A DNA stretch of 64,000 bases from Microgenomates group bacterium GW2011_GWC1_46_15 (GCA_001002285.1 LCLX01000001.1:316895-380894), one strand, 5' to 3'. Positions 7,553 to 61,537 are shown, counted from the first letter of the stretch. Numbers and translations are program-made. The notes: generated from the sequence alone by a model not told the origin.

Positions 7553-10285
7553 GTGGACATGACTTTAACGATGATCGGCACGGGTTTTGTGGGCGTTGTT
7601 TCCTCGGCGGTGTTTTCTTCTTTTGGAAACACAGTATATGGGCTTGATGTTGTTGAGGAGAAAATTGAGAAGCTCAAACGCGCCGAAATCCCCTTTTATG
7701 AACCAGGACTAAAAGAGTTGGTTGAAGAACAAATAAAAAAGGGCAATCTTCACTTTACAACGTCGTACCAAGAGGCAATTTCAGGTTCTGATGTTGTTAT
7801 TCTCGCTGTTGGAACTCCTTCTGCTGCGGATGGCCAGGCAGACTTAAAGTTTGTGTTTGCCGCGTGTGAAACACTTGCTCCGTTTTTAAAAGAAGGAGCC
7901 ATTGTTGCGATTAAAAGCACCGTACCTCCCGGAACGAATGCAAAAGTTGAACAGATTATTCGTGAAAAGACTCATGTGAAGTTCTTTACTGCGTCGTTGC
8001 CAGAGTTTTTGAAAGAAGGAACCGCGGTACAAGACACATTGCACCCGGATAGAATTCTCATTGGTGCGACAGACGCATCTGTTATTGAAAAATTAAAGAC
8101 GCTTCACGCCTCCTTGGGGGCTCCAGTCCTTGTGATGAAGCCGGAAAGCGCGCAAATGGCCAAGTATGCGGCCAATGCGTATCTCGCTACCCGCATCACG
8201 TTTATTAACCAAATTGCCAATCTTTGTGAGATCAATGGCGCCGATGTTTTGGAAGTGATTCAGGCGATTGGACAAGATAAACGAATTGGGGGCCATTATT
8301 GGTATCCCGGGCTTGGATATGGGGGGAGTTGTTTCAAGGGGAACGAAACAGTTTTTATGCTCAATAGTCCACGCGTGGCTCCTAGACGCTTGGATGAAAT
8401 TTTTCAGAAAGCAAATGAGTCAACTTCGATCGGTCGAGTCGAAGTTCGAGAAGCAAAAGATGCACGCGTACTGGCGTTTGACCTTCACACGGGAAATCCT
8501 ACTATTGCAGATGTACATGCGATAACCCGGCGACCATATCAAGGAGATATGGTGAAGATCACAACAAGTATGGGACGTTTGTTACACATAACTTCAGATC
8601 ATCCAGTTGTTCTTCGCGCCGAAAATACATTTATCATAACGCCTGCCTCACATGTTTCTGAGGGAGATCAGGTTATGGCACTTATGGAACTTCCAAAAAC
8701 TGAACGTACGACGGAACTGAACTTAATCGAGTTACTGCGGGGGACAAAGTTAGAAAAAACTGTGTACGTTTCTTCCATCGACGCATCTTTCGAGCAACAA
8801 TACCCGATATTTGTTCACCATATTCCAAAAAATATGCTCCATTACCCGCTGGAAATAAAGAAACATAACAGAATGTCACTAACACTCTTTCGTTATTTAG
8901 AAGAGCGCGGAGTACTTCACATTTCTTCCAAGAAACTTCAGGTATACACGGCAAAGGGAGCGGCAACAAAAATAAATGCTGTCATTTCCATTGATCAGGA
9001 CTTCATGCGGCTTTGCGGATACTATCTTGCAGAGGGATATATTGGCCTCGATGTAGGAAGGGTTGGCGCCCTGCGCAGCAGAATAGGGTTTTGTTTTAGT
9101 GAACGAGAATATGAATATATTTCCGATACCTGCGGCATTCTTAAACGCTTAGGAATGAAATATATTCAACGACATGCCACACACGCTATAACGACGATCG
9201 TGTCCTCACGAGTTTTTGCATGGGTGTTTCGTGATGTTTTAAAGATGGGGGTGCGTTCTGAGGATAAATCATTACCGCGAATTGCGTTTAATGTGCCGGA
9301 AGAATTACGTTTCGAACTTGTTCGTGGGATGTTTAGCGGGGATGGAGCGGTGACGAAAGTACAAAAAGGCCGCAATATGTTTTTTGAGTATGCAACAGTA
9401 AGTAAGTCACTTGCGGATGGAGCGGCATTTCTCTTGCAAACACTTGGTATCGTATCCTCTATTCGTGTACGCATGATGAACAAGTCTAAACATCAGGCAT
9501 ACATTCTTCGCATCAATGGATATCAACAAATGAAACAACTTATGAATGTGTTTGGAGAAAAACGACGGGATCAAATTCAAACAATACTTGCCGGTTATCA
9601 AAAACATATTAAGCAAAGCGGTTTTACACGATGCGGACCTTATACACTGCTCCGTGTCCAGAAAATCGAACGGGAAAAAGTTGATACCTTTGTGTATAGT
9701 TTGGAAACGAGTACAGGTACACTTATTGGTTCGTCCGGATTAATCGAACATAATTGTTTCCCCAAAGATGTGAAAGAGTTGGCCGCTTATGCCAAAGGAA
9801 TTGGTCAAAATGGCAATCTTATGGTCAAAGTAAGCGAGTTGAACGAAGAGCGGCCTTTAGCACTATTAGAGCGGTACGAGAAGCAAATCGGCGGTTGGGA
9901 AGGAAAAACGGTTGGTATACTCGGCCTTTCCTTTAAACCGAACACAGATGATATGCGGGAAGCTCCGAGTACGAAAGTTATTCCATATTTGTTGACAAAA
10001 AATACTCACATGAAAGCATACGATCCATTGGCGACAAAAACTGCTCAATCGTGGTTTCCCCAGTGGAACATAGAATATACTCAATCAACACAAGAAGCAT
10101 TGAAAGATTCGGATATTGTCATGCTTCTTATTGAGTGTGAAGAGTTTATTTCACTCTCCGTTTCTGACATTGCCGCCGGTATGAAGAAAGGCGGATGGTT
10201 TATTGATGTTCGCGACCAGTTTGCATCCAAGCGGAAAGAGTTCGACCAATACGGTATTCACTACATCGGGGTTGGCATTTCATGA
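7553..10285 (+). CDS. ugd: UDP-glucose 6-dehydrogenase precursor carrying a 475-aa intein. The mature enzyme would be about 435 aa.
   Basis: N-terminal IGTGFVG dinucleotide-binding fold. The catalytic motif GYGGS|C...HN|CFPKDV is split by the intein. The C-terminal UDP-sugar dehydrogenase domain resumes after 9755. The true start may be the internal M at 7559 or 7571. Confidence 0.85.
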   Translation: MDMTLTMIGTGFVGVVSSAVFSSFGNTVYGLDVVEEKIEKLKRAEIPFYEPGLKELVEEQIKKGNLHFTTSYQEAISGSDVVILAVGTPSAADGQADLKFVFAACETLAPFLKEGAIVAIKSTVPPGTNAKVEQIIREKTHVKFFTASLPEFLKEGTAVQDTLHPDRILIGATDASVIEKLKTLHASLGAPVLVMKPESAQMAKYAANAYLATRITFINQIANLCEINGADVLEVIQAIGQDKRIGGHYWYPGLGYGGSCFKGNETVFMLNSPRVAPRRLDEIFQKANESTSIGRVEVREAKDARVLAFDLHTGNPTIADVHAITRRPYQGDMVKITTSMGRLLHITSDHPVVLRAENTFIITPASHVSEGDQVMALMELPKTERTTELNLIELLRGTKLEKTVYVSSIDASFEQQYPIFVHHIPKNMLHYPLEIKKHNRMSLTLFRYLEERGVLHISSKKLQVYTAKGAATKINAVISIDQDFMRLCGYYLAEGYIGLDVGRVGALRSRIGFCFSEREYEYISDTCGILKRLGMKYIQRHATHAITTIVSSRVFAWVFRDVLKMGVRSEDKSLPRIAFNVPEELRFELVRGMFSGDGAVTKVQKGRNMFFEYATVSKSLADGAAFLLQTLGIVSSIRVRMMNKSKHQAYILRINGYQQMKQLMNVFGEKRRDQIQTILAGYQKHIKQSGFTRCGPYTLLRVQKIEREKVDTFVYSLETSTGTLIGSSGLIEHNCFPKDVKELAAYAKGIGQNGNLMVKVSELNEERPLALLERYEKQIGGWEGKTVGILGLSFKPNTDDMREAPSTKVIPYLLTKNTHMKAYDPLATKTAQSWFPQWNIEYTQSTQEALKDSDIVMLLIECEEFISLSVSDIAAGMKKGGWFIDVRDQFASKRKEFDQYGIHYIGVGIS
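8330..9754 (+). other. Intein (Hint splicing domain plus LAGLIDADG homing endonuclease), inserted in frame in ugd at the catalytic Cys.
   Basis: Cys1 (TGT at 8330) and block B LHITSDHPV (TxxH). Two LAGLIDADG-like motifs: LCGYYLAEGYIG and LVRGMFSGDGAV. It ends ...SSGLIEHN at 9754, with the +1 extein Cys at 9755. The extein junction reconstitutes the canonical GGSCFPKD motif. Confidence 0.85.
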
Positions 10286-11223
10286 AAATTCTTGTTACCG
10301 GCGCCTCCGGTTTTGCGGGCTCCCATCTGATTGAAGCATTAAAATCAGCCGGCCAGTCCGATATATACGGGACGGCATATGGAAACTCAAGTTATTTGGC
10401 GACGCTTATCCCCGAAGATCATATTATCAAAGTGAACTTGACGGATGCTGAGGCAACATTCACACTTATCGAAAAAGTCCAACCAGACCAGATTTACCAT
10501 CTCGCAGCATTTGCATTCGTCGGTGAAAGTTTTGACCGCGCTGCCGAACTTATGCAGAACAACATTGCTTTGCAGTTGAACATGTTGGAGGCGGTGCGCA
10601 AGTCTGCGCCCAAAGCGCGGCTTCTCGTCATTGGTTCTGCCGAAGAGTATGGGCTGAGCACAAAAGAGACGGAAAAAATCAATGAAGAACACCCATTTCG
10701 GCCAGTGAATCCATACGCGGTATCTAAAATAGCGCAAGATTTGTTGGGATACTCATACCAGGTTTCATACGGTCTTCAAGTGCTTCGCGTCCGCCCATTC
10801 AATCACATCGGTGAGCGCCAAACACCGGATTTTGCCATTCCCGCATTTGCCAAGCAAATTGTGGAGATAGAACGGGGGAAAAGCAGCAGCCTCAAAGTTG
10901 GCAATCTTGACGGCGTGCGTGATTTTACCGATGTGAAGGATATGGTGCGTGCATACATGACTATCATGGAAAAAGGAACGGTTGGCGAGGTGTATAACAT
11001 CGGAACCGGCATCGGGGTCAAAATGAAAGACGTTGTAGATAAGTTGGTTGCGTTGTCTACAGCAAAAATCCAGATTGAAGTAGATCAAACCCGCATGCGC
11101 CCACTTGATATTCCTTCGATTGTTGCTGATGCGTCTAAAATCATGGCGCTTGGGTGGAAACCAGAAATAGTACTAGATGAGACTCTAAAGAGGGTGGTAG
11201 AATATTGGAGAGTACAGAAATAA
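10282..11223 (+). CDS. NAD-dependent epimerase/dehydratase SDR, likely a GDP-4-keto-6-deoxy-D-mannose reductase (Rmd) or Fcl-like.
   Basis: MKILVTGASGFAGSHL N-terminus and YAVSK YxxxK motif. It lies in an operon with gmd and overlaps the ugd stop by ATGA. Confidence 0.55.
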   Translation: MKILVTGASGFAGSHLIEALKSAGQSDIYGTAYGNSSYLATLIPEDHIIKVNLTDAEATFTLIEKVQPDQIYHLAAFAFVGESFDRAAELMQNNIALQLNMLEAVRKSAPKARLLVIGSAEEYGLSTKETEKINEEHPFRPVNPYAVSKIAQDLLGYSYQVSYGLQVLRVRPFNHIGERQTPDFAIPAFAKQIVEIERGKSSSLKVGNLDGVRDFTDVKDMVRAYMTIMEKGTVGEVYNIGTGIGVKMKDVVDKLVALSTAKIQIEVDQTRMRPLDIPSIVADASKIMALGWKPEIVLDETLKRVVEYWRVQK

Positions 11224-11232
11224 GGAGGATGT

Positions 11233-11676
11233 ATGGTTTCGCTTGTTTCGCCCGAACTTGATGCGCAGATTAATGAACTTCATAAACTCGTTGAACCTTT
11301 ACGCGAAAAAGTTGAGAAATTGAGAGAGTTACGGAAAAATGCTCCCGAAAGCATGAAGCGTGGCGATGGATATGTTCATGAAATTTCAGAGATTATTCAT
11401 GCAAAAGACCTTCGGGTTGAAGAAATTGTTCAACAACTTGAAAAACTGAAAACAGCTATTCGTGGTGATGAAGTGTTGCTGGAGAGTTATCGTGATGCAT
11501 TTTTGGATAGAATTGCAAAAGAGAAACAGAATCTTATTGAGGATGGAAAAAAGATATTGGAAATTCAGCCAGATGAAGCTGCACTTCAGACATTTTTGGA
11601 AAATGAAATTAGGGGATCAAGGTATCCAGTCACGTCAATTGTGGGGTATTTTTCCCCAACAGAAAGCGACGTCTAA
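11233..11676 (+). CDS. Hypothetical coiled-coil protein.
   Basis: 147 aa, charged and helical with heptad-like Leu/Glu/Lys content. A strong AAGGAGG Shine-Dalgarno sits 5 nt before the ATG. It lies between the reductase and gmd. Confidence 0.55.
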   Translation: MVSLVSPELDAQINELHKLVEPLREKVEKLRELRKNAPESMKRGDGYVHEISEIIHAKDLRVEEIVQQLEKLKTAIRGDEVLLESYRDAFLDRIAKEKQNLIEDGKKILEIQPDEAALQTFLENEIRGSRYPVTSIVGYFSPTESDV

Positions 11677-11726: not shown

Positions 11727-12698
11727 ATGCCTAAAAAAGCACTTATCACTGGCATTACCGGCCAAGACGGCTCCTACCTCGCCGAGTTTCTCCTCGAAAA
11801 AGGATATAGCGTGTACGGCCTTACCCGTCGCACGAGCACGCAGAACTTTGAGCGCATTAAACACATCATTCACGACGTTGAACTTGTTTCCGGTGACCTC
11901 ATTGACCAGCACTCCATCACGAACGCCGTTCACACAATTCAACCGGATGAGGTGTATAACTTAGCCGCGCAGAGCTTTGTTCAGGCATCTTGGGAACAGC
12001 CAGTGTTGACTGGCGAGTTTACCGCACTTGGTGTTACACGTGTCTTGGAAGCCGTGAAGCTTGCCAAACAGGACGCCAAGTTTTACCAAGCCTCGAGCTC
12101 CGAAATGTTCGGCAAAGTGTTAGAAACACCGCAGAAAGAAACGACACCATTCTATCCCCGCTCGCCGTATGGTATTGCCAAAGTATATGGTCACTGGATC
12201 ACGGTGAACTACCGCGAGTCGTTCAACATGTTCGCGTGTTCAGGCATATTGTTTAACCACGAGTCGCCGCGGCGTGGGCTTGAGTTTGTAACGCGTAAAA
12301 TCGCAAACGGTGTTGCGCGGGTAAAGTATGGTATGCAAAAAACCATTAAACTTGGCAATCTCGAATCAAAACGTGACTGGGGATATGCTCCGGACTACGT
12401 CGAGGCAATGTGGCTCATGCTTCAGCAAGATAAACCGGATGATTTTGTGATCGCAACGGGAGAAACACACTCCGGCAGTGAATTTCTCGAGGAAGCGTGC
12501 AAAGTTGTGGGGATTTCGGATTGGAAAGCGGTGTACGAGCATGATGCCAAGTATGATAGGCCGGCGGAGGTTGATTTTCTCATTGGTGACGCGTCAAAAG
12601 CGAAAAAAGTTCTCGGGTGGTCCCCCAAGACGAGTTTCAAAGACCTTGTCCGCATTATGGTTGAGGCAGAGTTAGAATCGGAAAAGAATCAGACCTAA
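11727..12698 (+). CDS. gmd: GDP-mannose 4,6-dehydratase.
   Basis: [23 protein letters not shown] start, [14 protein letters not shown] (YxxxK), and full-length Gmd similarity. Confidence 0.9.
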
Positions 12699-12748: not shown

Positions 12749-13969
12749 ATGACACCTATGAAGATTTCGCGTGTAGTCATGATCATTCCAACGTACAACG
12801 AAAAAGAGAACATCTCTAAACTTATTCCGGTGCTTCAACAGGTTTTTTCCCGCGTTCCTAAAAAATATGAGATGCACATTCTGATTGTTGATGATAGTTC
12901 TCCCGATGGAACGGGAAATGTTGTTGAAAAGTTTTCACTGTCGAATAAAAACGTTCACTTGTTGACGAATCCAAAAAAAGGCGGATTGGGTGCGGCATAC
13001 ATGCGCGGGATGACCGAGGCGTTTGGTCCACTCAAAGCAGATCTTATTTTTGAGTTTGATGCGGATTTTTCGCACGATCCAGAAAAAATTCCGGAGTTTT
13101 TGCAGAAAATTGATGAAGGGTATGAGTTTGTCCTTGGTTCACGGTATATTCCCGGTGGTTCTATTCCTCCCAACTGGGGGTGGCACCGGAAGTTTCTCAG
13201 TATCTACGGCAACCTGTTTATTAATTTGGTATTGACGACGTTGGCTGTTCACGACTGGACAACAGGATACCGGGCGATTACTAAAAAAGTGTACATTGCC
13301 GTCCGCGATGAAATGAAAGGTGAACGATTTACCGGATATACCTGGCAAATTGGATTTCTGCACAAAGCAATGCGGAAAGGATTCAAAATTACCGAAGTGC
13401 CGTTCAAGTTTGTTGATCGTACAATGGGACACTCAAAACTCGGTGCGGAGTACATTAAAAATACGTTTATGTATATCGTAAAAGTGCGCTTGCAGGAAAT
13501 TTTTGCGATGCGCGTATTTAAGTTCGGCATGGTAGGTGGATTGGGATTTGTCATTAACACGCTTGGTTTGTTTCTTTTTAGCAGACTTCCGGTTGTTGTA
13601 TCGCTCTCAAATGCGTTATATACCACGACGAAACTCAGCATGGTAAATGTTTCGGGATTGGCGGCGGCACTTGGTGCGGAGTGTGCGATTATTTCAAACT
13701 TTACATGGAACAACCTGTGGACATTCCACGACAGAAAGCTTACAAGTGCGTGGAGCATTTTTCCAAAGTTTATTCAGTTTAATCTTGCCTCGTTTGGCGC
13801 AGTTGCCATTCAATTTTTAGTTGTTGGTGCGGGAACCGCGGTAACGGGACAAACAACATTTTGGCGGTTTTTCTGGCTCGTTGTGGCAACGGCAATAGGA
13901 ATGGTGTTGAACTATATTGTCTATAGCACATTTATTTGGAAAGTAAAAAAACCACATCCTGCAGTATGA
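12749..13969 (+). CDS. Polyprenyl-phosphate sugar synthase (GT2, DPM1/GtrB-like) fused to a C-terminal GtrA-like flippase domain.
   Basis: IIPTYNE...VDDSSPDGT...FDADFSHDP GT2 DPM-type motifs. The C-terminal four-helix region has FKFGMVGGLGFVINTLGLFLF and NFTWNNLWTF, the GtrA signature. The ORF-track start is 12707. Confidence 0.75.
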   Translation: MTPMKISRVVMIIPTYNEKENISKLIPVLQQVFSRVPKKYEMHILIVDDSSPDGTGNVVEKFSLSNKNVHLLTNPKKGGLGAAYMRGMTEAFGPLKADLIFEFDADFSHDPEKIPEFLQKIDEGYEFVLGSRYIPGGSIPPNWGWHRKFLSIYGNLFINLVLTTLAVHDWTTGYRAITKKVYIAVRDEMKGERFTGYTWQIGFLHKAMRKGFKITEVPFKFVDRTMGHSKLGAEYIKNTFMYIVKVRLQEIFAMRVFKFGMVGGLGFVINTLGLFLFSRLPVVVSLSNALYTTTKLSMVNVSGLAAALGAECAIISNFTWNNLWTFHDRKLTSAWSIFPKFIQFNLASFGAVAIQFLVVGAGTAVTGQTTFWRFFWLVVATAIGMVLNYIVYSTFIWKVKKPHPAV

Positions 13970-15471
13970 AGAAGTCTTACCTCTTTTTAGTGATTTTAAT
14001 GCTAATTGCTTCTTTTGTCCGATTTTTCCGGTTTACCGATTATCTCGAGTTTTTAGACGATCAAGGACGTGACGCGATTGTGATGAAGCGTATTCTCATA
14101 GATCACGATTTAACATTACTTGGTCCGGGTACGAGCGTTGGAAACATGTATCTTGGCCCACTCTACTACTATGCGATGACGCCGTTTTTGGCGCTCACAT
14201 ATCCCGATCCCACTGGTCCCGCATATGGAATGGCGCTACTCGGGGTTATGACGGTGGCACTCGTCTTTCTTTTGGGTAAGGAAATGGTTGGTGAACGTGC
14301 TGCTGGCATGGCGGCACTGCTGTATGCAACTGCGCCTGTCGTCATGCATCTTTCGCGATTTAGCTGGCAGCCCAATCCCGCGCCGTTTTTTGGTTTACTC
14401 ATGATGTGGTGCACGTACCGCGCGCTTAAAGGAAAAACATGGTATTGGTTGGGAGTTGGACTGAGTTTTGCGGTCATGACACAACTGCACTATGTTGCGA
14501 TGCTGACGCTTTTTCCTTCCGCGATGTTGTTTTTGTATGATGCGTGGAAACATCCAAAGAAACGCACAACGCATATTCAGATTGCCCTGTTGTCATTTTT
14601 CGCTGTTTTTCTTGTGTTTTCTCCTTTGATTGCGTTTGATCTTCGCCATGACCACCTTATTCTTAAAGGTTTCCAAGAGTTTCTTACTTCCCAGCACCAA
14701 ACCTCGCCTCTTTCTGACAGGATCGCACGATTCTTTCTCGATTTGCACGGGCGTGGACTACAAACCATTGTGGAAACACTGGGACTGCCGCACACCACAA
14801 TGACCGACCGCGAAGTAAATACAATACTGCTTGTAGTGTTTATTGTGAGCGCTATTTTTATTGCGTATACAAGAGTGAAAAAGAACAAAAATAGCACGGC
14901 GGAACTCATACTCTATGTATGGATTGGTATGACGATTATCGGGTTGTGTATGTATAGGAACACGGTATATCCACATTATTTTGCATTTCTTTTCCCTGCG
15001 ATATTTCTCGTTACAGGAATGATTTTTGCACACCTTGCATCGTTGCGGAAGTTTTTACTGCCGGTTGTATGGGGTGTTGTTGCGCTCCTTGCATTGTTAA
15101 ACGCTGGACAACTGAGCATTTGGCGCCACAAAGATTCTGACATGAAGCTTTTCCGCACGATTGTCCAGGATATTTCTTCCTCAATTAAGCCAGGAGAACG
15201 ATATAACCTTGCGCTGCTGAACTCGAACAGGGAATATCGTGCGATGAAGTACCGCTACTTTTTTGAGGTAAGCGATAAACAACCGCAGTCACAGTATGAC
15301 TACATGAATTTGGATAAACTTATTGTTGTTGTAGAGAACGGTGAACAGCCATTGAAAGCACCCATTTTTGAAGTGCAACAATTTATGCGCGAAGTCAAAA
15401 AACCAGTTCTACTGACAAAGAAAAGTTATCAGGGTAAGATTATAGAAGTGTACGTTTTTTCGAGAAAGTAA
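13966..15471 (+). CDS. GT-C fold polytopic membrane glycosyltransferase (PMT/ArnT-related, DxD-loop type).
   Basis: About 500 aa and multi-TM, with a first periplasmic loop LDDQGRDAIVMKRIL and PGTSVGNMYLGPLYYY. Its start overlaps the upstream stop as ATGA. It has paralogs at 56521 and 58027(-). Confidence 0.65.
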   Translation: MKKSYLFLVILMLIASFVRFFRFTDYLEFLDDQGRDAIVMKRILIDHDLTLLGPGTSVGNMYLGPLYYYAMTPFLALTYPDPTGPAYGMALLGVMTVALVFLLGKEMVGERAAGMAALLYATAPVVMHLSRFSWQPNPAPFFGLLMMWCTYRALKGKTWYWLGVGLSFAVMTQLHYVAMLTLFPSAMLFLYDAWKHPKKRTTHIQIALLSFFAVFLVFSPLIAFDLRHDHLILKGFQEFLTSQHQTSPLSDRIARFFLDLHGRGLQTIVETLGLPHTTMTDREVNTILLVVFIVSAIFIAYTRVKKNKNSTAELILYVWIGMTIIGLCMYRNTVYPHYFAFLFPAIFLVTGMIFAHLASLRKFLLPVVWGVVALLALLNAGQLSIWRHKDSDMKLFRTIVQDISSSIKPGERYNLALLNSNREYRAMKYRYFFEVSDKQPQSQYDYMNLDKLIVVVENGEQPLKAPIFEVQQFMREVKKPVLLTKKSYQGKIIEVYVFSRK

Positions 15472-15482
15472 CGAGAATAACT

Positions 15483-16265
15483 ATGCAGTCAGCGAAAACA
15501 TCAGTAAGAATTTCAGTCATTTTGCCCTCATACAACGAGATGCAAAATATTTCCCGCGGTGTTCTTGATGAGGTCTATGCCTATCTTGAAAAACAATCAT
15601 ATAGTTGGGAGATTGTTTTGACTGATGATGGTTCAACGGACGGAACGTTGGATGCGTTATACGCGTTTGAAAAAACACACGACCATGTAATGGTGATAAA
15701 CAATCCGCATCAGGGAAAAGGCCCAACTGTTGCGAATGGAATGTTGGCGGCACGTGGGAAACTCCGGCTGTTCTCCGATTTTGACCAAGCAACGCCGATT
15801 CATGAAGTTGAGCGCCTTCTGCCTTTTTTTGATGACAGATACGATATAGTAATCGGTTCACGCGAAGTTCAGGGGGCGCGGCGGGAAAAAGAACCGTTTC
15901 ACCGCCATATTATGGGAAAGGGATTCAACCTTTTTGTGAAGTTGTTTACTGTCCGTGGCATCCAAGACACGCAGTGTGGATTCAAAATGTTTACAGATCA
16001 GGCCGCCAAAACGCTGTTTCCAATGTTATCTGTGTACAAAGCAGGGAATGTCCGCGGCGATGCATTTACCGGCGCGTTTGATGTTGAACTGTTATACATT
16101 GCAAAGAAAAAAAACCTCAAGATCGCTGAGGTCCCTGTGTTTTGGAAACATATTAAAACAAATCGCGTTGACCCGATCAAAGACTCTACGCGCATGCTGA
16201 TTGATCTCGTCAAAATACGCTTTTCAGACATGCTGGGGGCGTACTCCGAAACACGAAAACAATGA
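15483..16265 (+). CDS. GT2 glycosyltransferase, DPM1/Alg5-like polyprenyl-phosphate glycosyltransferase (soluble).
   Basis: ISVILPSYNE, LTDDGSTDGT, and the DxD-like FSDFD. 260 aa with no TM segments. Confidence 0.75.
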   Translation: MQSAKTSVRISVILPSYNEMQNISRGVLDEVYAYLEKQSYSWEIVLTDDGSTDGTLDALYAFEKTHDHVMVINNPHQGKGPTVANGMLAARGKLRLFSDFDQATPIHEVERLLPFFDDRYDIVIGSREVQGARREKEPFHRHIMGKGFNLFVKLFTVRGIQDTQCGFKMFTDQAAKTLFPMLSVYKAGNVRGDAFTGAFDVELLYIAKKKNLKIAEVPVFWKHIKTNRVDPIKDSTRMLIDLVKIRFSDMLGAYSETRKQ

Positions 16266-17461
16266 AAAAACTCTTTCTTCAACTGCTTCTCATCATTCCG
16301 TTTATTTTATTTGGTGTGTATTCGTACGCGCAGACTGATCCCAATTTAGTCATTTCGTCATACCCTCCGTACTGGAAGTTCCAACAACACATGTGGCAGT
16401 TGGGATATCACCAGCGGCCGCAGTCTACCGAGATATACGCAGGGATTATTGTTCTGATGTTTATTGCTTCAGTTGTTGCGGTTCGCAAGTTATCTAAACT
16501 CGCGCTGTTTCCATTTTTTTTGAGTGTTGTACTAATTCTTATCTTTGCATACCCCGCACTTTCGCATGATCTTTTCAACTACATGTTCAATGCAAAAATG
16601 GTCACGGTATACCATGCAAATCCACATCAACACGTTGCGCTGGAGTTCCCGAGCGACGATTGGTTACGGTTTATGCACAACACGCACACACCAGCACCGT
16701 ATGGATATGGATGGACCGTTCTCTCTTTACTCCCGTACGCTTTTGGCATGAATAAGTTCAACCCGACCTACTATTTGTTTAAAACATTTATGGTTGTTGG
16801 ATTATTTGGGCTATTTTATGTGCAAAAACGCATTGCAGTACTGTTGAAAGAAGAAAAACAGTGGAGCATTTCACGATGGTTGTTTTTTCTCAGCCCTTTG
16901 GTGCTCATTGAAACAATTGGAAACGCCCATAATGATGTGTGGATGATTGCGCTGGCACTTGGTTCGATGTGGATGGCGTTTCTTTCACTCAAACAAAAAA
17001 AGATGATGATGTGGATAGCCTACGCCGTATCCTCGCTTGCGTTTCTTGCGGCATCAATCTCGATAAAATTTGCAACGATTGTTCTTCTTCCGGTTGTGGT
17101 TATTCTTATGTTTTCAAGCCGTGTGAAAAATAAGATGATTGCAATAATTACCCGCTACTGGGCAGATATTTCTGCTGTTTTGCTCTTTCTGCCATTGCTT
17201 ACCGAGCGGTCTCAACAGTTTCATCCGTGGTACCTCATCTGGAGTTTAGCGTTTGTCCCATTTATGCAAAAAACATGGCTTAAAGTGTGGATATTGGCGT
17301 TCTCTCTCTCAAGCATGTTCCGGTATGTTCCATTCCTCTACTATGGCGAGTACACACCACGGGAACTACAGCAGGAGTTACTTATTACTTGGGCGGGAGG
17401 TATCGGGGTATTTGTGGTGTGGGGGTTGGTACGCAAATTCAGTGTTGCAAGTCATAAATAA
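16262..17461 (+). CDS. Polytopic membrane protein, GT87/DUF2029-like putative polyprenyl-P-sugar-dependent glycosyltransferase.
   Basis: 399 aa and multi-TM. The first loop HDLFNYMFNAKMVTVYHANPH...EFPSDDW resembles the DUF2029 DLxxY...NPY...YPP pattern. A T8 tract lies in the coding region. Confidence 0.45.
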   Translation: MKKLFLQLLLIIPFILFGVYSYAQTDPNLVISSYPPYWKFQQHMWQLGYHQRPQSTEIYAGIIVLMFIASVVAVRKLSKLALFPFFLSVVLILIFAYPALSHDLFNYMFNAKMVTVYHANPHQHVALEFPSDDWLRFMHNTHTPAPYGYGWTVLSLLPYAFGMNKFNPTYYLFKTFMVVGLFGLFYVQKRIAVLLKEEKQWSISRWLFFLSPLVLIETIGNAHNDVWMIALALGSMWMAFLSLKQKKMMMWIAYAVSSLAFLAASISIKFATIVLLPVVVILMFSSRVKNKMIAIITRYWADISAVLLFLPLLTERSQQFHPWYLIWSLAFVPFMQKTWLKVWILAFSLSSMFRYVPFLYYGEYTPRELQQELLITWAGGIGVFVVWGLVRKFSVASHK

Positions 17462-17473: not shown

Positions 17474-18262
17474 TTATTTTATAACTTGATGTATCGAAAA
17501 ATCTACAAATTCATTAACTTTTGATATGGCTAGCCCGACACTTTTCTGTTCGTTGCTCCATTGTACCTTTCTCCATGTTACTGCATTTTGTATCAATGAC
17601 TTCCATTGAGGAAATTCTTCACAAATCCATTCTGCAGCTTGTTTTTTTGATACTTCTTCACCGTGTTTGTAACCATACAATGCTCTGCATAATGTAAATA
17701 CTACATAAGCCAAAGAACCTCGGGAAGACTGAGTATTATATTTTTTTATCCATTCACTCCAAAGAAGCGTATTTTCTTTGACAGCATTAATATACTCATC
17801 TTTAGATATTTTTGTAATAATTGATGCTTGATTAGGACCAAAAAGCACAATCCCGTTTTCCTGAACGATATACCAATTTATTAACCAATCTTTTCCTGCT
17901 TCAATGAAATGAATTGGTTCACCGGGGCTAATATTAACAATCTTACTGGTTTGAACCTTGAATGTTTTTAAACCAGAAAGAGAGACATATTGCACCTCAA
18001 TTCTATCCTTCCACGTTTTATATTTGTGGATTAAATCATCATGCATTTTCTTGAGAGCTTCAAATTCTAGTTCATCAATATCTACCGATGTTACGGTGAG
18101 TAAATCGATATCACTTATATCATGATCAAAATCTCCCGTTACAAGTGATCCGTAGAGATATAAACCCACGAGTTTATCATGAAGAATCGATTGCATTCGT
18201 GTTAATAAAGTATTAAGCAATCTATTGACGTCACTATAAGGCGTTACATTCATAAGAAACAT
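17474..18262 (-). CDS. Aminoglycoside nucleotidyltransferase of the ANT(3'')/ANT(9) (AadA/AadK) family.
   Basis: LYLYGSLVTGDFDHDISDIDLLTVT aligns with the AadA LYGSAVDGGLKPHSDIDLLVTV block. About 262 aa, the same length as AadA, with a DUF4111-like C-terminus. Low GC (about 33%) and on the opposite strand to its neighbours. Confidence 0.7.
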   Translation of the reverse strand: MFLMNVTPYSDVNRLLNTLLTRMQSILHDKLVGLYLYGSLVTGDFDHDISDIDLLTVTSVDIDELEFEALKKMHDDLIHKYKTWKDRIEVQYVSLSGLKTFKVQTSKIVNISPGEPIHFIEAGKDWLINWYIVQENGIVLFGPNQASIITKISKDEYINAVKENTLLWSEWIKKYNTQSSRGSLAYVVFTLCRALYGYKHGEEVSKKQAAEWICEEFPQWKSLIQNAVTWRKVQWSNEQKSVGLAISKVNEFVDFSIHQVIK

Positions 18263-18286: not shown

Positions 18287-19765
18287 ATGAAGAAATATCT
18301 TCTCCTAGCCCTTTTTCTTCTCACGCACTTTCTTTTTTTAACAAAGCTTCCTGTTTTTTCTGATGAGGCAATTTATATCCGGTGGGCGCAGGTTGCATTC
18401 AATGAACCGCAAAAATATGCGTTTCTTCCCATGCTTGATGGAAAACCCCCACTGCACGTATGGCTGATGATTCCATTTTTACGTATATTTTCTGACCCAC
18501 TATTTGCGGGGCGCGCATTTTCTGTTCTTGCCGGCGCACTCACGATGCTTGTCGTCGGAAAACTTGTGCGGCTGTTAGGCGGAAAAGAACGCGAAGAACT
18601 TTTAGCCATGGCGTTGGTTGTGGTTGTGCCATTTTGGTTTCTCAACCATCGTATGGCGTTAGCAGACGGACTACTTGTGCTGTTTTTTAGTATGGCGCTG
18701 TATTTTGGATTACGGTTGTGTATGAAACCACGGCGTTTCGAGATGATCGCGTTTGCACTGAGTTTTGGTGCTGCGTTGTGGGTCAAAACAACGGCGCTAT
18801 TTTTTATTCCGGTGTATGCGTGTTTACCACTGCTTGCACTGAGTACAGAGAATAAAAAAATCTCATTGAACGCGATAATAAAAACGTACATAAGCAGAGC
18901 CACTCTCAAACTTATCATCGGTGGTCTTCTGGCCGGTGGACTATTTTTACTCCTAAAGTTTTCACCTCTTTTTCCGTATCTTTTCAAGCGAAGCGAAGAC
19001 TACACGTTCACCATTCCTCAGCTTTTGGGCGGGGAATGGAAAGTCGTGCTATTTGATTCGCTTCCGCAAAAACTGTGGTGGATTGTGTGGTATATGACGC
19101 CGTTTGCATTTTTGCTCTCTTTATTTGAACGGAAGAAAAATAGTGTTCTTTTTCTTATGGCAGCAGCCTATGTTCTCCCTTTAATAATAATAGGAAGAGT
19201 TTTATATTCAAGATATTTTTTGCCCACCGCCGTACTATTTACCCTTTCTGCAGTCATTGGATACGGCAGAGCAAGACAACAAAAGTCTTTGCAAAATATC
19301 GCGCACATTTTAATGGCATGTTTTCTCGTGTTTTCAATTGTTTTCTCTGGTATTTCAGTATTTAAGCCGGAAAGCACGCCATATGTCCAGCTCGACCGCA
19401 GCCAATATCTCCTATCTTGGGCTGCCGGCTACGGCATTCCGCAGGTCCGCGACTATCTCACCGAACGCATAAAACACGGTAAAGTAACGGTTGGTGCAGA
19501 GGGATACTTTGGGACGCTTCCCGATGGTCTTCTCATGTACTTTGACCATGTGCCAAATGGCGGAAATATTCGCATAGATGGTGTCGGCGTTTCTCCTGAA
19601 GTGATCCCGCAATGGGTTCTGGACTCCGCAAAAACAAGCGAAACATATCTCCTCCTTAATGATGACCGTTTTCACATGGCGGACAAATCACACCTTCAAT
19701 TGGTTTCGTCTTATCCGCGCCCAGATCACGCGCCCTCGCTTTTGCTCTTGAGAGTCGTGCGATAA
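18287..19765 (+). CDS. GT-C glycosyltransferase, ArnT/PMT_2 (GT83-like) family.
   Basis: Polytopic. The first loop DEAIYIRWAQ (DE catalytic dyad) is typical of ArnT/PMT_2. Confidence 0.65.
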   Translation: MKKYLLLALFLLTHFLFLTKLPVFSDEAIYIRWAQVAFNEPQKYAFLPMLDGKPPLHVWLMIPFLRIFSDPLFAGRAFSVLAGALTMLVVGKLVRLLGGKEREELLAMALVVVVPFWFLNHRMALADGLLVLFFSMALYFGLRLCMKPRRFEMIAFALSFGAALWVKTTALFFIPVYACLPLLALSTENKKISLNAIIKTYISRATLKLIIGGLLAGGLFLLLKFSPLFPYLFKRSEDYTFTIPQLLGGEWKVVLFDSLPQKLWWIVWYMTPFAFLLSLFERKKNSVLFLMAAAYVLPLIIIGRVLYSRYFLPTAVLFTLSAVIGYGRARQQKSLQNIAHILMACFLVFSIVFSGISVFKPESTPYVQLDRSQYLLSWAAGYGIPQVRDYLTERIKHGKVTVGAEGYFGTLPDGLLMYFDHVPNGGNIRIDGVGVSPEVIPQWVLDSAKTSETYLLLNDDRFHMADKSHLQLVSSYPRPDHAPSLLLLRVVR

Positions 19766-19783: not shown

Positions 19784-21436
19784 ATGCGGCGCATGTTTGT
19801 TTTTCTTATCTGCGTGATCGTTACACTATTCAGCCTCCGCTTCCTTTTTAACACAACATTTTTTCCGATTCATGATTACACGCACGTAACCCGCCTTGTC
19901 GAGATGGATCGGGCGCTCCGCGATGGGCATTTCCCCGTGCGATGGGTGCGCGATCTTGGGTATGGATACGGCGAGCCACTGTTTAGTTTTTATGGACCCG
20001 CACCGTTTTATCTTGCCGAAGTGTTCCACCTTCTTGGTTTATCGTTTCTCGTGAGCATTAAGGCGCTTCTTGTTGTGATGACGCTTGCCGGATTTGCCGG
20101 CATGTATCTTTTGGCGTCAAAACTGTTCGGGCGGACAGGCGGAATACTAGCGGCTTCCGCGTTTTTACTCATTCCATACCGGGCGCTTGACCTTTTTGTC
20201 CGCGGTGCGTTCAACGAGCTGTTTGCCATTACAGTAGTTCCTTGGATTATGTACGGCATGCTGAACATGAAAGAGAAAAAATCGTGGAGATGGGTCGGCG
20301 CCATCACTGGGCTGTTTTTCCTTCTTTTTACGTCGCACAACCTCATGACGATGATGTTTCTTCCGTTTTTATATATTTTTGGAGTTGTTGTATTGTTTGG
20401 AGTAAAAGATAAACGGACGTACGCGCTAAAACTTCATTCAGCGCTTCTCTTGGGGGTTGTCGCGGCGGCGTTTTATCTTTTCCCCTCGTATCTTGAAAAA
20501 GGATTTACGCAGGTGGACAAGTTGATCGGTGGGTATGGTCTGTACGCATATCACTTTTTATATATCCGCCAATTTTTCACGGGTGTATGGGGATACGGTG
20601 GCTCGATTTCCGGAATAGAAGATGGGCTTTCGTTCCATCTTGGACTGGCGCATGTGGTATTGGCGGCGGTTGGCATAGCGGGGTGGTTTTTTCTCAAAAA
20701 GAAACGATCTGAAAAAATGCTCGCAGTTTTTATTGCAGCAGCAGCAGCGCTTGCGCTCTTTCTAACAATTTACAAAAGCCAGTTCATTTGGGATAGAATT
20801 CCGTTTTTTGTGTATTTTCAATTTCCATGGCGGTTTCTTTCGGTCACAACAGTGTTTTTGCCGTTGATGGCGGGTGGGGCGGTACTATGGATTCATAAAA
20901 AGTCGCATCGTATTTTGGCGGTGTGTGTGGTCATCATTGCATTACTCATTCTTAACTTGAAATACTTTGCACCCTCCAAACTTCTTGATAATCCGAACGC
21001 GCTGTACTACTCCGACCCGCAGAGAATTCAGGACTCAATGAGCGACACACTGCCGGACTACATTCCAATTGGCATGAAAGTCATTCAACCGCCGTTCCAA
21101 CAACCGTTTGAGTTGCTTGGAGCTTCCACAAAAGATCAAATCCAAGTTTTTGTAGATCGCACACAAGAAAAATTGTTATCCTTTACTCTGCAAAAACCTA
21201 CGACATTAATCGTTCGCACGGCGTGGTTCCCCGGCTGGACGGTGTACGACTTTGATCAAAAAATCACATATACTGTTGATACCACGACGGATTTTATTTC
21301 GGTTCCGTTACAAGAAGGACAACATTTTATCAGCGTTGTATTTGAAAATACTCCAGTACGTGCGGTATCAAATCTGATATCGATACTTGGGTTGTTGGGT
21401 ATAGCGGGAGCATTGTTTTATGGTAGACATGATTGA
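19784..21436 (+). CDS. Polytopic membrane protein of a GT-C-like family with an HDxxH / FPxRW / GYGYP motif (possibly Pfam PTPS-related membrane domain).
   Basis: IHDYTHVTRLVEMDRALRDGHFPVRWVRDLGYGYGEPLFSFYGPAPFYL. Shares this signature with the genes at 26045 and 51999. About 12 TM segments plus a C-terminal extracytoplasmic domain. Confidence 0.55.
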   Translation: MRRMFVFLICVIVTLFSLRFLFNTTFFPIHDYTHVTRLVEMDRALRDGHFPVRWVRDLGYGYGEPLFSFYGPAPFYLAEVFHLLGLSFLVSIKALLVVMTLAGFAGMYLLASKLFGRTGGILAASAFLLIPYRALDLFVRGAFNELFAITVVPWIMYGMLNMKEKKSWRWVGAITGLFFLLFTSHNLMTMMFLPFLYIFGVVVLFGVKDKRTYALKLHSALLLGVVAAAFYLFPSYLEKGFTQVDKLIGGYGLYAYHFLYIRQFFTGVWGYGGSISGIEDGLSFHLGLAHVVLAAVGIAGWFFLKKKRSEKMLAVFIAAAAALALFLTIYKSQFIWDRIPFFVYFQFPWRFLSVTTVFLPLMAGGAVLWIHKKSHRILAVCVVIIALLILNLKYFAPSKLLDNPNALYYSDPQRIQDSMSDTLPDYIPIGMKVIQPPFQQPFELLGASTKDQIQVFVDRTQEKLLSFTLQKPTTLIVRTAWFPGWTVYDFDQKITYTVDTTTDFISVPLQEGQHFISVVFENTPVRAVSNLISILGLLGIAGALFYGRHD

Positions 21437-22871
21437 TGTAAAGAAAAAATCAGTGCGGGGCGTTGTGAGTTACGCATTCCGAACACTTGCTTTGCAGGCT
21501 ATTGGGTTTGTCGCGACCTTGCTCCTGGGGTATTACTTGTCGCCAGCTGACTTTGGCATTTATTTTATCGTAACTGCAGTCATTGGAGTCTTTACATTCT
21601 TATCTGATATTGGTTTGGCGGCAGCGCTTGTGCAGAAAAAAGAGGAACCAACGCGCGAGGATCTTCAAACAACGTTTACCGTTCAGCAAGGATTGGCGTT
21701 CACGATTTTTGGCGCAACAATTCTGTTGACGCCGTTCTGGAAAACGTATGCCAATCTCGATACCGAGGCGCTGTGGCTTTTATATGCGTTGGGTTTTTCA
21801 TTCGTGTTGGCCTCGCTCAAAACAATCCCATCTATTTTGCTTGAAAGAAAACTTGAGTTTACAAAACTTGTTTTTCCTCAAATCATTGAAAATGTCTTGT
21901 TCTACAGTATCGCGGTTGCCTTGGCCGCCTCAGGCTTTGGCGTGCGTAGTTATACCATCGCGGTATTGGCACGGAGCATTGGTGGAGTAATCGCGATTTA
22001 TTTTATTCAGAGTTGGCCCATTGGTTTTGCATTTTCCAAGAAGGCGCTCCATAACTTATTGCGGTTTGGCGCAAAGTTCCAGTTGAATGATTTTCTTGCC
22101 CGTATCAAAGACGATCTGTTTATTGTCGTGATTGCCAGATTTATTCCCGCGACGCAGATGGGATACTTGAGTTGGGCAAAGCGATGGTCAATGTTCCCGT
22201 ACCAGTTCAGCGTGAACAGCATTATGTCGGTTACGTTTCCAACGTTTTCCCGCCTTCAGGAGCATCCAGATAAACTCAAGCGCGCGATCGAGAAATCTAT
22301 GTACTTCGTTACGCTTGTTATCTTTCCCGTACTCGTGGGGTTGTGTGTGTTGGCGTATCCAATGATCGGCATCATTCCAAAGTATCAAAAATGGCTGCCC
22401 GCACTTCCCGCGCTGTACTTTTTCTGTATAAACATCGCATTCGCGGCGCTTTCAACCCCGCTGACAAATACGCTCAACGCAATCGGAAAAATTAATCAAA
22501 CACTCAAACTCATGCTCATGTGGACGGGGCTAACGTGGACGCTTACCCCGCTCGCCGTGATGATGTTTGGATTTACCGGTGTTGCGGTCGCTTCGGCGGT
22601 TATCGCGTTGAGTTCAGTTGCAACAATTTGGATGGTAAAGAAGTACGTGCGGATTAAAACTCTCGATCAGATTTGGAGGCAAGCGTTTGCCTCACTTGCA
22701 ATGGGTGCTGCAATCCTTCTTGTACAAAATATATTCCACGTAGGATTAGTAGAAGTGTTAGCAGAAATTGTTTTGGGTGGTCTTTTCTACCTCGTGTTGT
22801 TATTAATCACGGGCAAGAAAAAACTCTTTTTTGAGCTCGAGTCCATTAAACCTTTTTTTGTGAAAGGATAG
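21420..22871 (+). CDS. wzx: Wzx-type oligosaccharide flippase (MOP superfamily polysaccharide biosynthesis protein).
   Basis: 483 aa with about 12-14 TM segments. The N-terminal YAFRTLALQAIGFVATLLLGYYLSPADFGIYFIV region is typical of Wzx/RfbX. Confidence 0.65.
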   Translation: MVDMIDVKKKSVRGVVSYAFRTLALQAIGFVATLLLGYYLSPADFGIYFIVTAVIGVFTFLSDIGLAAALVQKKEEPTREDLQTTFTVQQGLAFTIFGATILLTPFWKTYANLDTEALWLLYALGFSFVLASLKTIPSILLERKLEFTKLVFPQIIENVLFYSIAVALAASGFGVRSYTIAVLARSIGGVIAIYFIQSWPIGFAFSKKALHNLLRFGAKFQLNDFLARIKDDLFIVVIARFIPATQMGYLSWAKRWSMFPYQFSVNSIMSVTFPTFSRLQEHPDKLKRAIEKSMYFVTLVIFPVLVGLCVLAYPMIGIIPKYQKWLPALPALYFFCINIAFAALSTPLTNTLNAIGKINQTLKLMLMWTGLTWTLTPLAVMMFGFTGVAVASAVIALSSVATIWMVKKYVRIKTLDQIWRQAFASLAMGAAILLVQNIFHVGLVEVLAEIVLGGLFYLVLLLITGKKKLFFELESIKPFFVKG

Positions 22872-24927: not shown

Positions 24928-26061
24928 GTGCATAATAGAAAGATGAAATATCTTGGTTTGTTTCTCGCAGTGTTTATCACTGGATACCATGTGTTTTCGC
25001 AGTGGCAGGTCTTTTCTTCCCCAACGGATATGCGGGCATTTGGCAAGGCATATGCAAACTCACAATATGTAAAAGGAGAAGCGAGCACGCAGAAAGTTGA
25101 TGATGCGGCGGTGTATACATACGCGGCTTCTGCATACATGCGTGGGGAAGACCCAACGACAATTAACTTTGAGCATCCGCCATTAGGAAAGTATCTTTTT
25201 GGAGTGTCGTACCTCCTAACAGGAAATATATTATGGGCGAATGCAGTTGCGCTTTTTCTCGTTTTATTTTTTCTTGATGTACTTATGCGGCGCGTTAGCC
25301 TCATGCCACTATTACGCGCTATCGTACTTCTTCTTTTTGGTCTCCAGGAGATGATTCATGTTCACATGCGGTTGGGATTGATGGATCTCATGGTGTTGTG
25401 CGCGAGTGTGATATTTTTTGTGGCGCTTTTTTCGCAGAGTCCAAAACAAAATCCGAAATGGAAAAAATGGCACGGGGTTGGAGTAGGCCTTGTATTAGGG
25501 TTGCTTGCTTCGCTTAAATATCCTGTACCCTCAATTGGAATGTATGTGGCGATGATGGTGTGGTGGTACGTCCGGCAAAAAACATACCGACAGATTGTTG
25601 TTGCAAGTTTGGTGGCAGTGAGCATGTACATGTTTACGTACGGGGTGTATTTTCTTCATGGTCATTCGCTGATCGATTTTGTGAAGTTCGAATGGTACCG
25701 GTTCCGGTGGTGGACGGGAGATCGGAGTATGCCAAAGTTTTTAATTCTGCAGACTTTATTTACAGGGGGATTTCCCGCTTGGTGGGATAAAGGAGCGCGG
25801 TATGTGGAGACGGAATGGTCGGTGCTATGGCCGGTAGCGTATATTGCACAGTTCATCGGGCTTCCAGTGATGAGGAAAAACAAAGAGCTCCAAATGTATT
25901 TTGTGTATGGTACTGGATTTTTAATGTTATTTGCCGTTGGTGCGGCCTCGTTTGGTCGGTATCTCCAGCAGCTTTTGCCATTTTGGTTGATTATTGCGGC
26001 ATGTGGAGCGCAGTGGGTGTACACGCAAGTCAAAAAGAAAAACTATGCAAAACAAACATAA
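24928..26061 (+). CDS. PMT-like GT-C membrane protein (short form).
   Basis: KVDDAAVYTYAASAYMRGEDP...FEHPPLGKYLFG carries the DDxxxY and HPPLGK motifs of the PMT/ArnT first loop. The ORF-track start is GTG 24928, with an alternative ATG at 24943. Confidence 0.5.
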   Translation: MHNRKMKYLGLFLAVFITGYHVFSQWQVFSSPTDMRAFGKAYANSQYVKGEASTQKVDDAAVYTYAASAYMRGEDPTTINFEHPPLGKYLFGVSYLLTGNILWANAVALFLVLFFLDVLMRRVSLMPLLRAIVLLLFGLQEMIHVHMRLGLMDLMVLCASVIFFVALFSQSPKQNPKWKKWHGVGVGLVLGLLASLKYPVPSIGMYVAMMVWWYVRQKTYRQIVVASLVAVSMYMFTYGVYFLHGHSLIDFVKFEWYRFRWWTGDRSMPKFLILQTLFTGGFPAWWDKGARYVETEWSVLWPVAYIAQFIGLPVMRKNKELQMYFVYGTGFLMLFAVGAASFGRYLQQLLPFWLIIAACGAQWVYTQVKKKNYAKQT

Positions 26062-60845: not shown

Positions 60846-60848
60846 TTG

Positions 60849-61529: not shown

Positions 61530-61537
61530 GGAGAGTT

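Follow-up and report, generated by a model that had tools for sequence, protein, structure and literature searches.

A predicted polyprenyl-phosphate sugar synthase of the DPMS type and an adjacent GT-C glycosyltransferase in an envelope glycan locus of a Microgenomates bacterium

Domain architecture of the synthase and its neighbour

The DNA analysed here is a 64,000-nucleotide stretch (the window) from the Microgenomates group bacterium GW2011_GWC1_46_15 (GCA_001002285.1, LCLX01000001.1:316895-380894), a groundwater member of the candidate phyla radiation (CPR), and our subject is a pair of adjacent + strand genes, 12758..13969 and 13966..15471, predicted to encode a polyprenyl-phosphate hexose synthase of the dolichyl-phosphate mannose synthase (DPMS) type and a glycosyltransferase of the GT-C superfamily. 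The open reading frame (ORF) of the synthase ends at 13969 and has three candidate starts (TTG 12707, ATG 12749 and ATG 12758). Public gene calls start it at 12758, giving a protein of 403 amino acids, the same length as its homologues; synthase residues are numbered below from ATG 12749. An earlier note on this DNA described the protein as a DPM1-like family 2 glycosyltransferase (GT2) joined to a GtrA-like four-helix domain, and the domain scan that it called for supported both parts. PF00535 (Glycos_transf_2) matched residues 12-177 with 94.1 bits (threshold 23.3; E 1.2e-26), and PF04138 (GtrA_DPMS_TM) matched residues 258-397 with 45.8 bits (threshold 26.1; E 8e-12) over positions 1-117 of the 117 in the model, so the C-terminal domain is GtrA-like by profile. 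The catalytic domain corresponds to about 12782..13447 and the four-helix transmembrane (TM) domain to about 13520..13939; the motif NFTWNNLWTF, to which the note had drawn attention, was found at residues 317-326.

The closest solved relative of the synthase was the DPMS of Pyrococcus furiosus (PfDPMS; 5mlz in the Protein Data Bank, PDB), with an E-value of 1.6e-36 over residues 8-359 in a single-sequence phmmer search, and a profile of 28 homologues matched chain residues 23-372 of 374 (E 3.6e-53), all four TM helices included. ArnC (about 1e-14 to 1e-17) and GtrB (about 1e-9 to 1e-14) aligned with the catalytic part only. The label of a GtrB-GtrA fusion, under which the protein had been introduced, is thus misleading, because the protein is much nearer to PfDPMS than to GtrB (5ekp, E 6.5e-9 in the single-sequence search). 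GtrB is a tetramer with the sequence DADLQD and a C-terminal two-helix hairpin, whereas the catalytic domain here is DPMS-like (DADFSH, of the form DADxSH) and is followed by the four-helix GtrA-like C-terminus. The AlphaFold2 (AF2) model of the synthase (pLDDT 85.1, pTM 0.70) consists of a GT-A domain, interface helices and four long TM helices (residues 255-277, 301-325, 334-366 and 370-396). Its TMH1-TMH2 loop holds an extra short helix (residues 281-294), part of an insert of about 20 residues (281-300) by which it differs from PfDPMS. When the model was compared with the PDB by Foldseek, the PfDPMS entries 5mlz, 9ep0 and 5mm1 came out on top (E about 1e-20), followed by ArnC and GtrB.

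Relatives of the synthase are extremely numerous: at least 7,008 database proteins reached E<=1e-10 when 8,000 candidates were scored, and PF00535 and PF04138 occur together in about 400 amino acids in 120/120 of the best relatives, several of which are already named 'dolichol-phosphate mannosyltransferase'. Pfam's own name for PF04138 is already "GtrA/DPMS". The identical protein has been deposited for the Microgenomates group bacteria GW2011_GWA1_46_15 and GWB1_45_17 and for Candidatus Pacebacteria metagenome-assembled genomes, and full-length relatives also occur on contigs labelled Proteobacteria and in one Methanomassiliicoccales archaeon. Judged by its sequence, the GT2-GtrA fusion is a known architecture, the usual single-chain form of a very large family with PfDPMS as its solved prototype. 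In public records the synthase is called only 'glycosyltransferase', and the product of the next gene 'hypothetical protein'.

That next gene (13966..15471, also labelled 13936 in gene lists; residues numbered from 13966) begins with an ATG that overlaps the TGA of the synthase as ATGA, which suggests that the two are translationally coupled. The earlier assignment of its product as a GT-C transferase was confirmed by a match to PMT_2 (E 1.7e-13, Pfam) and by its predicted fold. Sequence and profile searches of the PDB with this protein and with the products of two genes discussed below (16262 and 22874) gave no match, so structure prediction was needed. The AF2 model (pLDDT 91.7, pTM 0.91) shows about 13 TM helices and, at the C-terminus, an alpha/beta domain of about 100 residues, and the top Foldseek match was ArnT (5f15; E 4e-7, TM-score 0.62/0.58). 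AglB, STT3, ALG12, ALG9 and PglB were also retrieved, together with PMT1/2/4 over a shorter span of only about 265 columns (TM-score 0.35). Directly after the first TM helix, in the first outer loop, lies the acidic motif D32-Q-G-R-D36, of the kind expected of the GT-C superfamily and invariant in a 30-sequence alignment. The 429 relatives found at E<=1e-5 are labelled 'glycosyltransferase family 39' or 'ArnT-like'.

Catalytic and intramembrane residues of the synthase

Conservation was counted in 119 homologues of the synthase, and PfDPMS positions were mapped through HMMER alignments (chain number = native + 22), with the roles of PfDPMS residues taken from PMC5526996 and PMC12992685. Type-III DPMS has been defined by motifs, and this strict definition confines the type to hyperthermophilic archaea (Gandini et al. 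2026, PMC12992685). The focal protein shares the type-III architecture with PfDPMS (5mlz, 5mm0, 5mm1, 9ep0), to which it is homologous over its whole length: a GT2 domain, interface helices and a four-helix GtrA-like TM domain in a single chain. Its catalytic and substrate residues are invariant, namely D49 (PfDPMS D39), D104/D106 (D89/D91, within the DAD sequence) and H109 (H94, at mannose O3), as are R224 (R202) and K230 (K208). The residues that bind the phosphate of dolichyl phosphate are likewise kept in 119/119 homologues: S131-R132-Y133 (SRY, with Arg117), R147 (R131) and S151 (S135).

The polar pocket within the membrane is also retained. N317 (N277) and N388 (R341) were found in 119/119 homologues, and N270 (N248) is Asn in 88/119 and Gln in 23/119. 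The R341 position is Asn in archaea outside the Thermococcales as well (PMC12992685), and the intramembrane asparagines of PfDPMS have been linked to possible self-flipping of dolichyl-phosphate mannose (Dol-P-Man) (PMC12992685). In all, six polar or charged residues within the membrane (E311, N317, N322, K340, N345 and N388) are invariant, which is more constraint than a simple anchor needs.

Conserved gene order around the pair

In about 13 distinct Microgenomates genomes, in which the focal synthase is 43-63% identical, the same block of genes was found in the order Ugd, Rmd-like short-chain dehydrogenase/reductase (SDR), Gmd, GT2-GtrA, GT-C (13936 type), GT2 (15483 type), GT-C (16262 type, PF26314 MptA_B) and GT-C (18287 type). 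A polytopic ORF of about 430-540 amino acids starts between -7 and +207 nucleotides from the stop of the synthase gene in 15/16 loci at >=43% identity. In the window, the block opens with a UDP-glucose dehydrogenase gene (Ugd, 7553..10285, + strand). It is followed on the same strand by a gene for an Rmd-like GDP-6-deoxy-D-lyxo-4-hexulose reductase of the GDP-D-rhamnose pathway (10282..11223; PDB 2pk3 at full length with E 1.2e-66, then 6x3b) and, directly 5' of the synthase, by that for GDP-mannose 4,6-dehydratase (Gmd, 11727..12698; TIGR01472, 442.1 bits against a cutoff of 415). The adjacency of Gmd and the synthase is kept in the block relatives, with two loci (L011 and L014) having no Gmd beside the synthase.

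A second synthase and GT-C pair lies directly after the focal pair. The gene at 15483..16265 (+ strand) encodes a second GT2 of the DPM1 clade, 260 amino acids long, with no TM helix and with a TQCGFK motif, which is a candidate polyprenyl-P-hexose synthase of the ALG5-like kind (Pfam GT2; NCBIfam PgfS and ArnC); it groups with the focal GT2 (76 bits) and its position in the block is conserved. It overlaps by ATGA with 16262..17461 (+ strand), a GT-C gene of the MptA/MptB family; the public entries of this exact protein and of its orthologues list PF26314 (MptA_B_family), and our local Pfam copy gave no match. This overlap and the conserved block support well the earlier pairing of 15483 with 16262. 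The last member is a PMT/PMT_2 GT-C gene at 18287..19765 (+ strand; PMT_2 1.6e-14, PMT 5.4e-12), whose orthologues occupy the same position in L001-L014. The block holds two nucleotide-sugar pathways (GDP-D-rhamnose and UDP-glucuronate, UDP-GlcA), two lipid-sugar synthases and no cytoplasmic GT-B.

Proposed function of the pair and alternative explanations

We propose, with a probability of roughly three in four, that the focal pair acts as a make-and-use unit for one lipid-linked sugar inside a large envelope glycan locus of a Microgenomates/Pacebacteria (CPR) bacterium. The cytoplasmic GT-A domain would take a manno-configured hexose from a GDP-sugar and load it onto polyprenyl phosphate, so that polyprenyl-P-sugar is formed by the chemistry of the Pyrococcus DPMS; we infer this step because of the full-length homology to PfDPMS and the invariant catalytic residues. 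GDP-mannose is the most likely donor, with D-rhamnose possible. The product might then reach the outer leaflet through the synthase's own GtrA-like domain, through the Wzx-like protein of gene 21420 or through another scramblase, and the coupled ArnT-like GT-C would transfer the sugar from the flipped polyprenyl-P-sugar to an acceptor outside the cytoplasm, as its fold, its motif and its linkage to the synthase indicate. A wall-linked glycopolymer or heteropolysaccharide built by the locus is the most likely acceptor, because the locus encodes RmlB/C/D, a LytR-CpsA-Psr (LCP) ligase, Wzx and many GT2 and GT4 enzymes; pathways for dTDP-rhamnose, GDP-D-rhamnose and UDP-GlcA and many GT-C enzymes are encoded there too. 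The LCP ligase gene (2205..3224, + strand) flanks the start of the locus together with a gene for a trans-type polyprenyl synthetase (PF00348; 559..1656, - strand), and its presence points to peptidoglycan as the site to which the glycan product is attached.

Several observations weigh against this proposal. Three of the strict type-III motifs have changed in the synthase: 89-DADxQHPP-96 (DADLQHPP in PfDPMS) reads D104-A-D-F-S-H-D-P111 (DADFSHDP), with Gln93 replaced by Ser in 112/119 homologues and Pro95 by Asp in 117/119; Lys178 of the KIL motif aligns with T198, a Thr in 118/119; and the Phe338 gate (Phe/Tyr) corresponds to position 385, occupied by Met (104 of the 119), Leu (13) or Ile (2). 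Donor binding or gating may therefore work differently in detail, and, on its sequence, the focal protein is a PfDPMS homologue of the same architecture with the polar pocket kept, and not a member under the strict type-III definition. A GT-C neighbour was found in only 1/10 loci of distant full-length homologues (36-43% identity), so the pairing is a property of the lineage and not of the family. The genes for Gmd and the Rmd-like reductase, which lead to GDP-D-rhamnose, lie directly 5' of the synthase in a conserved arrangement, and the sugar may be D-rhamnose. Finally, that the TM domain itself flips the product is no more than a hypothesis in the literature, even for PfDPMS.

The last point bears on a serious competing explanation, to which we give slightly less than even odds: the GtrA-like domain would be only a membrane anchor and a dock for polyprenyl phosphate, and flipping would be done by the MOP/Wzx-type protein encoded at 21420..22871 (+ strand; Polysacc_synt_3 6.7e-53, MurJ 8.2e-8) or by another scramblase, so that the pair would supply two components of three. 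The Wzx-type gene is the sole other flippase candidate in the window and belongs to the conserved neighbourhood, and the Wzx-family protein GacK is the proposed flippase of undecaprenyl-phosphate GlcNAc (GlcNAc-P-Und) in Streptococcus pyogenes (bioRxiv 10.1101/180810). The loss of the Phe338 gate fits an anchor as well. An anchor would not, however, need as much constraint as the six invariant residues and the retained PfDPMS polar pocket show; lipid-sugar flipping in Listeria needed the GtrA-family protein GtcA, in which R95, N132, K121, F74 and F91 are essential, and not the Wzx homologue (PMC7389260), and the Wzx protein encoded at 21420 more plausibly exports a pyrophosphate-linked repeat unit. 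When the pair is set against the three-component scheme of Mann & Whitfield, the GT2 polyprenyl-phosphate glycosyltransferase is present by homology and the genetically linked GT-C is present, and the place of the dedicated flippase may be taken by the GtrA-like domain with its conserved polar residues, with the Wzx gene of the locus as the alternative. The earlier picture of a complete three-component module in two genes accordingly stands as far as domain content goes, and the label of flippase keeps its domain and loses its certainty, since the role is 'putative' for stand-alone GtrA proteins too.

Two further alternatives concern the sugar and the acceptor, and we consider both unlikely. 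With the GDP-D-rhamnose pathway directly 5' of a synthase of the GDP-sugar type, a minority reading is that the donor is GDP-D-rhamnose or another GDP-6-deoxyhexose, which would make the product polyprenyl-P-D-rhamnose, a compound that we do not know to have been described as a lipid-linked donor, though no literature search aimed at it was made. Gmd scores above its equivalog cutoff, the Rmd-like reductase matches 2pk3 with E 1.2e-66, most Microgenomates relatives have the three genes in the same order (Rmd-Gmd-synthase), and the two nucleotide-sugar pathways of the block stand beside two lipid-sugar synthases with no cytoplasmic GT-B. Adjacency of genes is nevertheless no proof of substrate use, Gmd is missing beside the synthase in L011 and L014, and the GT4 enzymes of the window (39327, 50953) could use GDP-D-rhamnose directly. 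Two residues of PfDPMS lie near mannose O6/O4: K178, which is replaced by Thr in the focal protein, and R117, whose counterpart R132 is invariant, as are the remaining sugar-contacting residues. The mannose-specific eukaryotic DPM1 probably also has no Lys at the K178 position, and for these two reasons we rejected the exchange to Thr as evidence of a 6-deoxy sugar. It is about as improbable that the two genes serve protein O-mannosylation in the manner of actinobacterial Ppm1/Pmt, with the GT-C acting on secreted or surface proteins. The PMT_2 match, the family 39 annotation of its relatives and the PMT structures among the fold matches would suit such a role, but the lipid-A glycosyltransferase ArnT matched best and the PMT structures far less fully; a MIR domain appears to be absent, as Pfam gave nothing beyond PMT_2 and a DUF6057 match below threshold, and the periplasmic domain, of about 100 amino acids, is small. 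The context of the locus, with its LCP ligase, Wzx and rhamnose pathways, is that of glycopolymer assembly.

A bolder form of our proposal, which we consider less likely than not, is that type-III DPMS has its counterpart among mesophilic bacteria in the Microgenomates clade, where a single chain would both make and flip the polyprenyl-P-sugar and hand it to the coupled GT-C, with the Asn triad N270/N317/N388 as the path of the headgroup. The product of such an enzyme might, in addition, be polyprenyl-P-D-rhamnose.

Comparison with known systems

What the focal pair provides is the correct annotation of an architecture that is already known, has been solved and is extremely common; the functional logic of the earlier note was largely sound. 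Apart from the motif exchanges and the insert described above, the synthase differs from PfDPMS in its host, which is a CPR bacterium and not a hyperthermophilic archaeon, in its lipid substrate, which is probably a bacterial polyprenyl phosphate and not dolichyl phosphate, and in lying in an operon with a GT-C that is its likely consumer. In the GtrA/GtrB/Gtr(type) systems of Shigella phages, which act in O-antigen glucosylation, and in CsbB-GtcA-YfhO of Bacillus, Listeria and Staphylococcus, clustered genes likewise encode a GT2 that makes polyprenyl-P-sugar, a presumed flippase of the GtrA family and a GT-C that acts on the outer side of the membrane, whereas in the focal protein synthase and GtrA-like part form one covalent chain. 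The ArnC/ArnE-ArnF/ArnT pathway also joins a GT2 lipid-sugar synthase to a GT-C of the ArnT fold, the best structural match in our case, and Ugd heads the conserved block just as PmrE/Ugd feeds the Arn pathway. Homologues of ArnA, ArnB and ArnD are absent here, however, and the flippase candidate is GtrA-like and not an ArnE/F pair. To our knowledge of CPR envelopes in general, the organism probably has no lipid A, so its acceptor must differ from that of the Arn pathway.

In the lipomannan and lipoarabinomannan systems of mycobacteria and corynebacteria, Ppm1 makes polyprenyl-P-mannose for many GT-C enzymes, including MptA/MptB, and the window, with an MptA/B-family gene (16262) and 14-16 GT-C genes, shows a comparable dependence on GT-C chemistry outside the cytoplasm; Ppm1 itself has no GtrA-like domain, and phylum and envelope differ. 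That a 64-kb locus of a small-genome CPR bacterium encodes 14-16 GT-C enzymes and up to five lipid-sugar synthases suggests an envelope glycan that is assembled largely outside the membrane, as in mycobacteria. Our literature search found no specific description of GT-C expansions in CPR/Patescibacteria or of fused GT2-GtrA proteins. The main interest of the pair lies in a large bacterial clade that has the complete PfDPMS architecture, including the polar pocket with its intramembrane asparagines, operon-coupled to a GT-C. Its members, as natural variants, would make it possible to study the flipping hypothesis at ordinary temperatures, and, if one chain does make and flip its product, they would offer a model system, easy to express, for a long-open question, the passage of Dol-P-Man and other polyprenyl-P-sugars through membranes.

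Other DPM1-like synthases in the window

By local all-against-all scoring, the 11 GT2s of the window fall into three clusters. The focal GT2 (12749), 15483, 31620/31647, 50224 and 60846/60870 form one of them, with 23-80 bits between members, and the six other GT2s stand apart. The best NCBIfam matches of the five clustered proteins were ArnC, PgfS, AglJ, Dol-P-hexose transferase and PpgS, all below the equivalog cutoffs, and the earlier figure of at least five lipid-linked donors is, given the weak synteny of 31620 described below, a plausible upper reading and not a result. The same module had also been said to recur across the locus. This does not hold, because the GtrA domain occurs only in the focal gene and the four other DPM-like GT2s lack it; among the gene calls with recorded Pfam matches, which cover about 2.7-64 kb of the window, there was no other GtrA, SMR or EamA gene.

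The proposed partnerships beyond 15483 and 16262 are looser. The AglJ-like GT2 of the DPM1 clade at 31647..32342 (+ strand, with an alternative start at 31620; NCBIfam AglJ, 136 bits against a cutoff of 325) is a candidate lipid-sugar synthase, and its pairing with the GT-C at 32873 (given earlier as 32900) is loose: both proteins are there, but a methyltransferase gene lies between them. Any polytopic ORF within 4 kb was present in only 12/42 metagenome loci of relatives of 31620, and no homologue of 32873 was detected in the 42, a weak test given that GT-C proteins diverge fast. On this synteny, and with the same reservation about the test, a general module of this GT2 and a GT-C is not supported. 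Commoner neighbours of the 31620 relatives in these loci were Ugd and an SDR, which lie 5' of seven of the relatives and also of four distant full-length relatives of the focal synthase. This arrangement is Arn-like and hints at lipid-linked sugars derived from UDP-glucuronate. At 50224..50934 (+ strand), a GT2 of the DPM1 clade resembling AglJ and Dol-P-hexose transferase (NCBIfam AglJ, 110 bits; DPhHxTase, 84 bits) does have a GT-C at 51999 in its vicinity, as had been stated, but a GT4 gene intervenes and the pairing is again loose.

The fifth member, at 60870..61529 (+ strand, with an alternative start at 60846), is a GacI/PpgS-like GT2 (NCBIfam PpgS, E 4.2e-26) that overlaps a gene for a small DUF2304 membrane protein at 61499..61861 (+ strand; PF10066, E 7.6e-20, 71.6 bits against 25.5). 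The DUF2304 protein that had been paired with it is therefore real, but it is a predicted synthase activator subunit of the GacJ/Rv3632 type, neither flippase nor GT-C. The DUF2304 protein of the GacI/GacJ and PpgS/Rv3632 systems binds to its synthase and raises its activity (bioRxiv 10.1101/180810). The two genes resemble GacI/GacJ/GacK/GacL of Streptococcus pyogenes and PpgS/Rv3632/Rv3779 of M. tuberculosis in combining a TM-less GT2, a candidate synthase of lipid-linked N-acetylhexosamine, with a small putative activator; they differ in having no adjacent GT-C or Wzx in the window and in a PpgS score of 91.8 bits against a cutoff of 370.

GT-C genes and variable genes of the locus

The window had been credited with about 20 GT-C enzymes, and our count is lower: 14 genes are supported by sequence and profile comparison, or 15-16 with one probable and one weak candidate. 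Pfam supports 13936, 18287, 19784, 25994, 41332, 42831, 44426, 46039, 51999 and 56521; paralogy adds 27765 and 58027 (hhalign 95.5% and 99.8%), and the recorded PF26314 match adds 16262. The gene at 32873..35158 (+ strand) was added as a divergent, PTPS_related-like GT-C of 761 amino acids, which has no Pfam match and aligned with the profile of the 19784 orthologues over 311 columns (hhalign 92%, E 6.6e-7). Pfam searches at E up to 5 gave no match for 16262, 22874, 24928, 27765, 29504, 32873, 48927 or 58027, and thin hhalign profiles of three to five sequences were barely informative, so deeper orthologue profiles were used. With these, 24928 is a probable GT-C (68%) and 29504 a weak candidate (19%), and 22874 and 48927 received no GT-C assignment. 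These last four are + strand genes for polytopic membrane proteins (24928..26061, 29504..30763, 22874..24919 and 48927..50246); 48927 and 22874, the latter directly after the Wzx gene, might encode proteins that resemble polymerases or ligases. By eye, 'EHPPLGKYL' in 24928 and 'YEYPPATIP' in 29504 are reminiscent of GT-C first-loop motifs.

The 916-residue protein of 51999..54749 (+ strand) has two GT-C modules by Pfam, PTPS_related-like at residues 78-374 and PMT_2 at residues 621-761, a GT-C/GT-C fusion in one chain, and is paralogous to 19784 and 25994. Four tandem PMT-like GT-C paralogues with overlaps of a few bases occupy 41332..47568 (+ strand), and a fifth lies at 27765..29462 (- strand). 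Their mutual phmmer E-values, 1e-20 to 1e-77, mark a local expansion of GT-C genes.

Some positions within the conserved block are variable. The Ugd gene carries a LAGLIDADG intein (Pfam UDPG_MGDP_dh N, central and C domains with Intein_splicing and LAGLIDADG_3). In a 96%-identical sister strain, Ugd is intein-free and 433 amino acids long, so the intein is a recent, polymorphic insertion. Between the Rmd-like gene and Gmd, an ORF of 147 amino acids with no family match (11233..11676, + strand) has a counterpart of 144 amino acids in the sister strain, and a SecA_DEAD-containing protein of 1,175 amino acids takes its place in L001. A second variable slot lies between two conserved GT-C genes, 16262 and 18287: the window has there an AadA/ANT-like nucleotidyltransferase gene (17474..18262, - strand; NTP_transf_2 and AadA_C, 59 bits, far below resistance-gene cutoffs), and the sister strain has YecM and an ORF of 132 amino acids.

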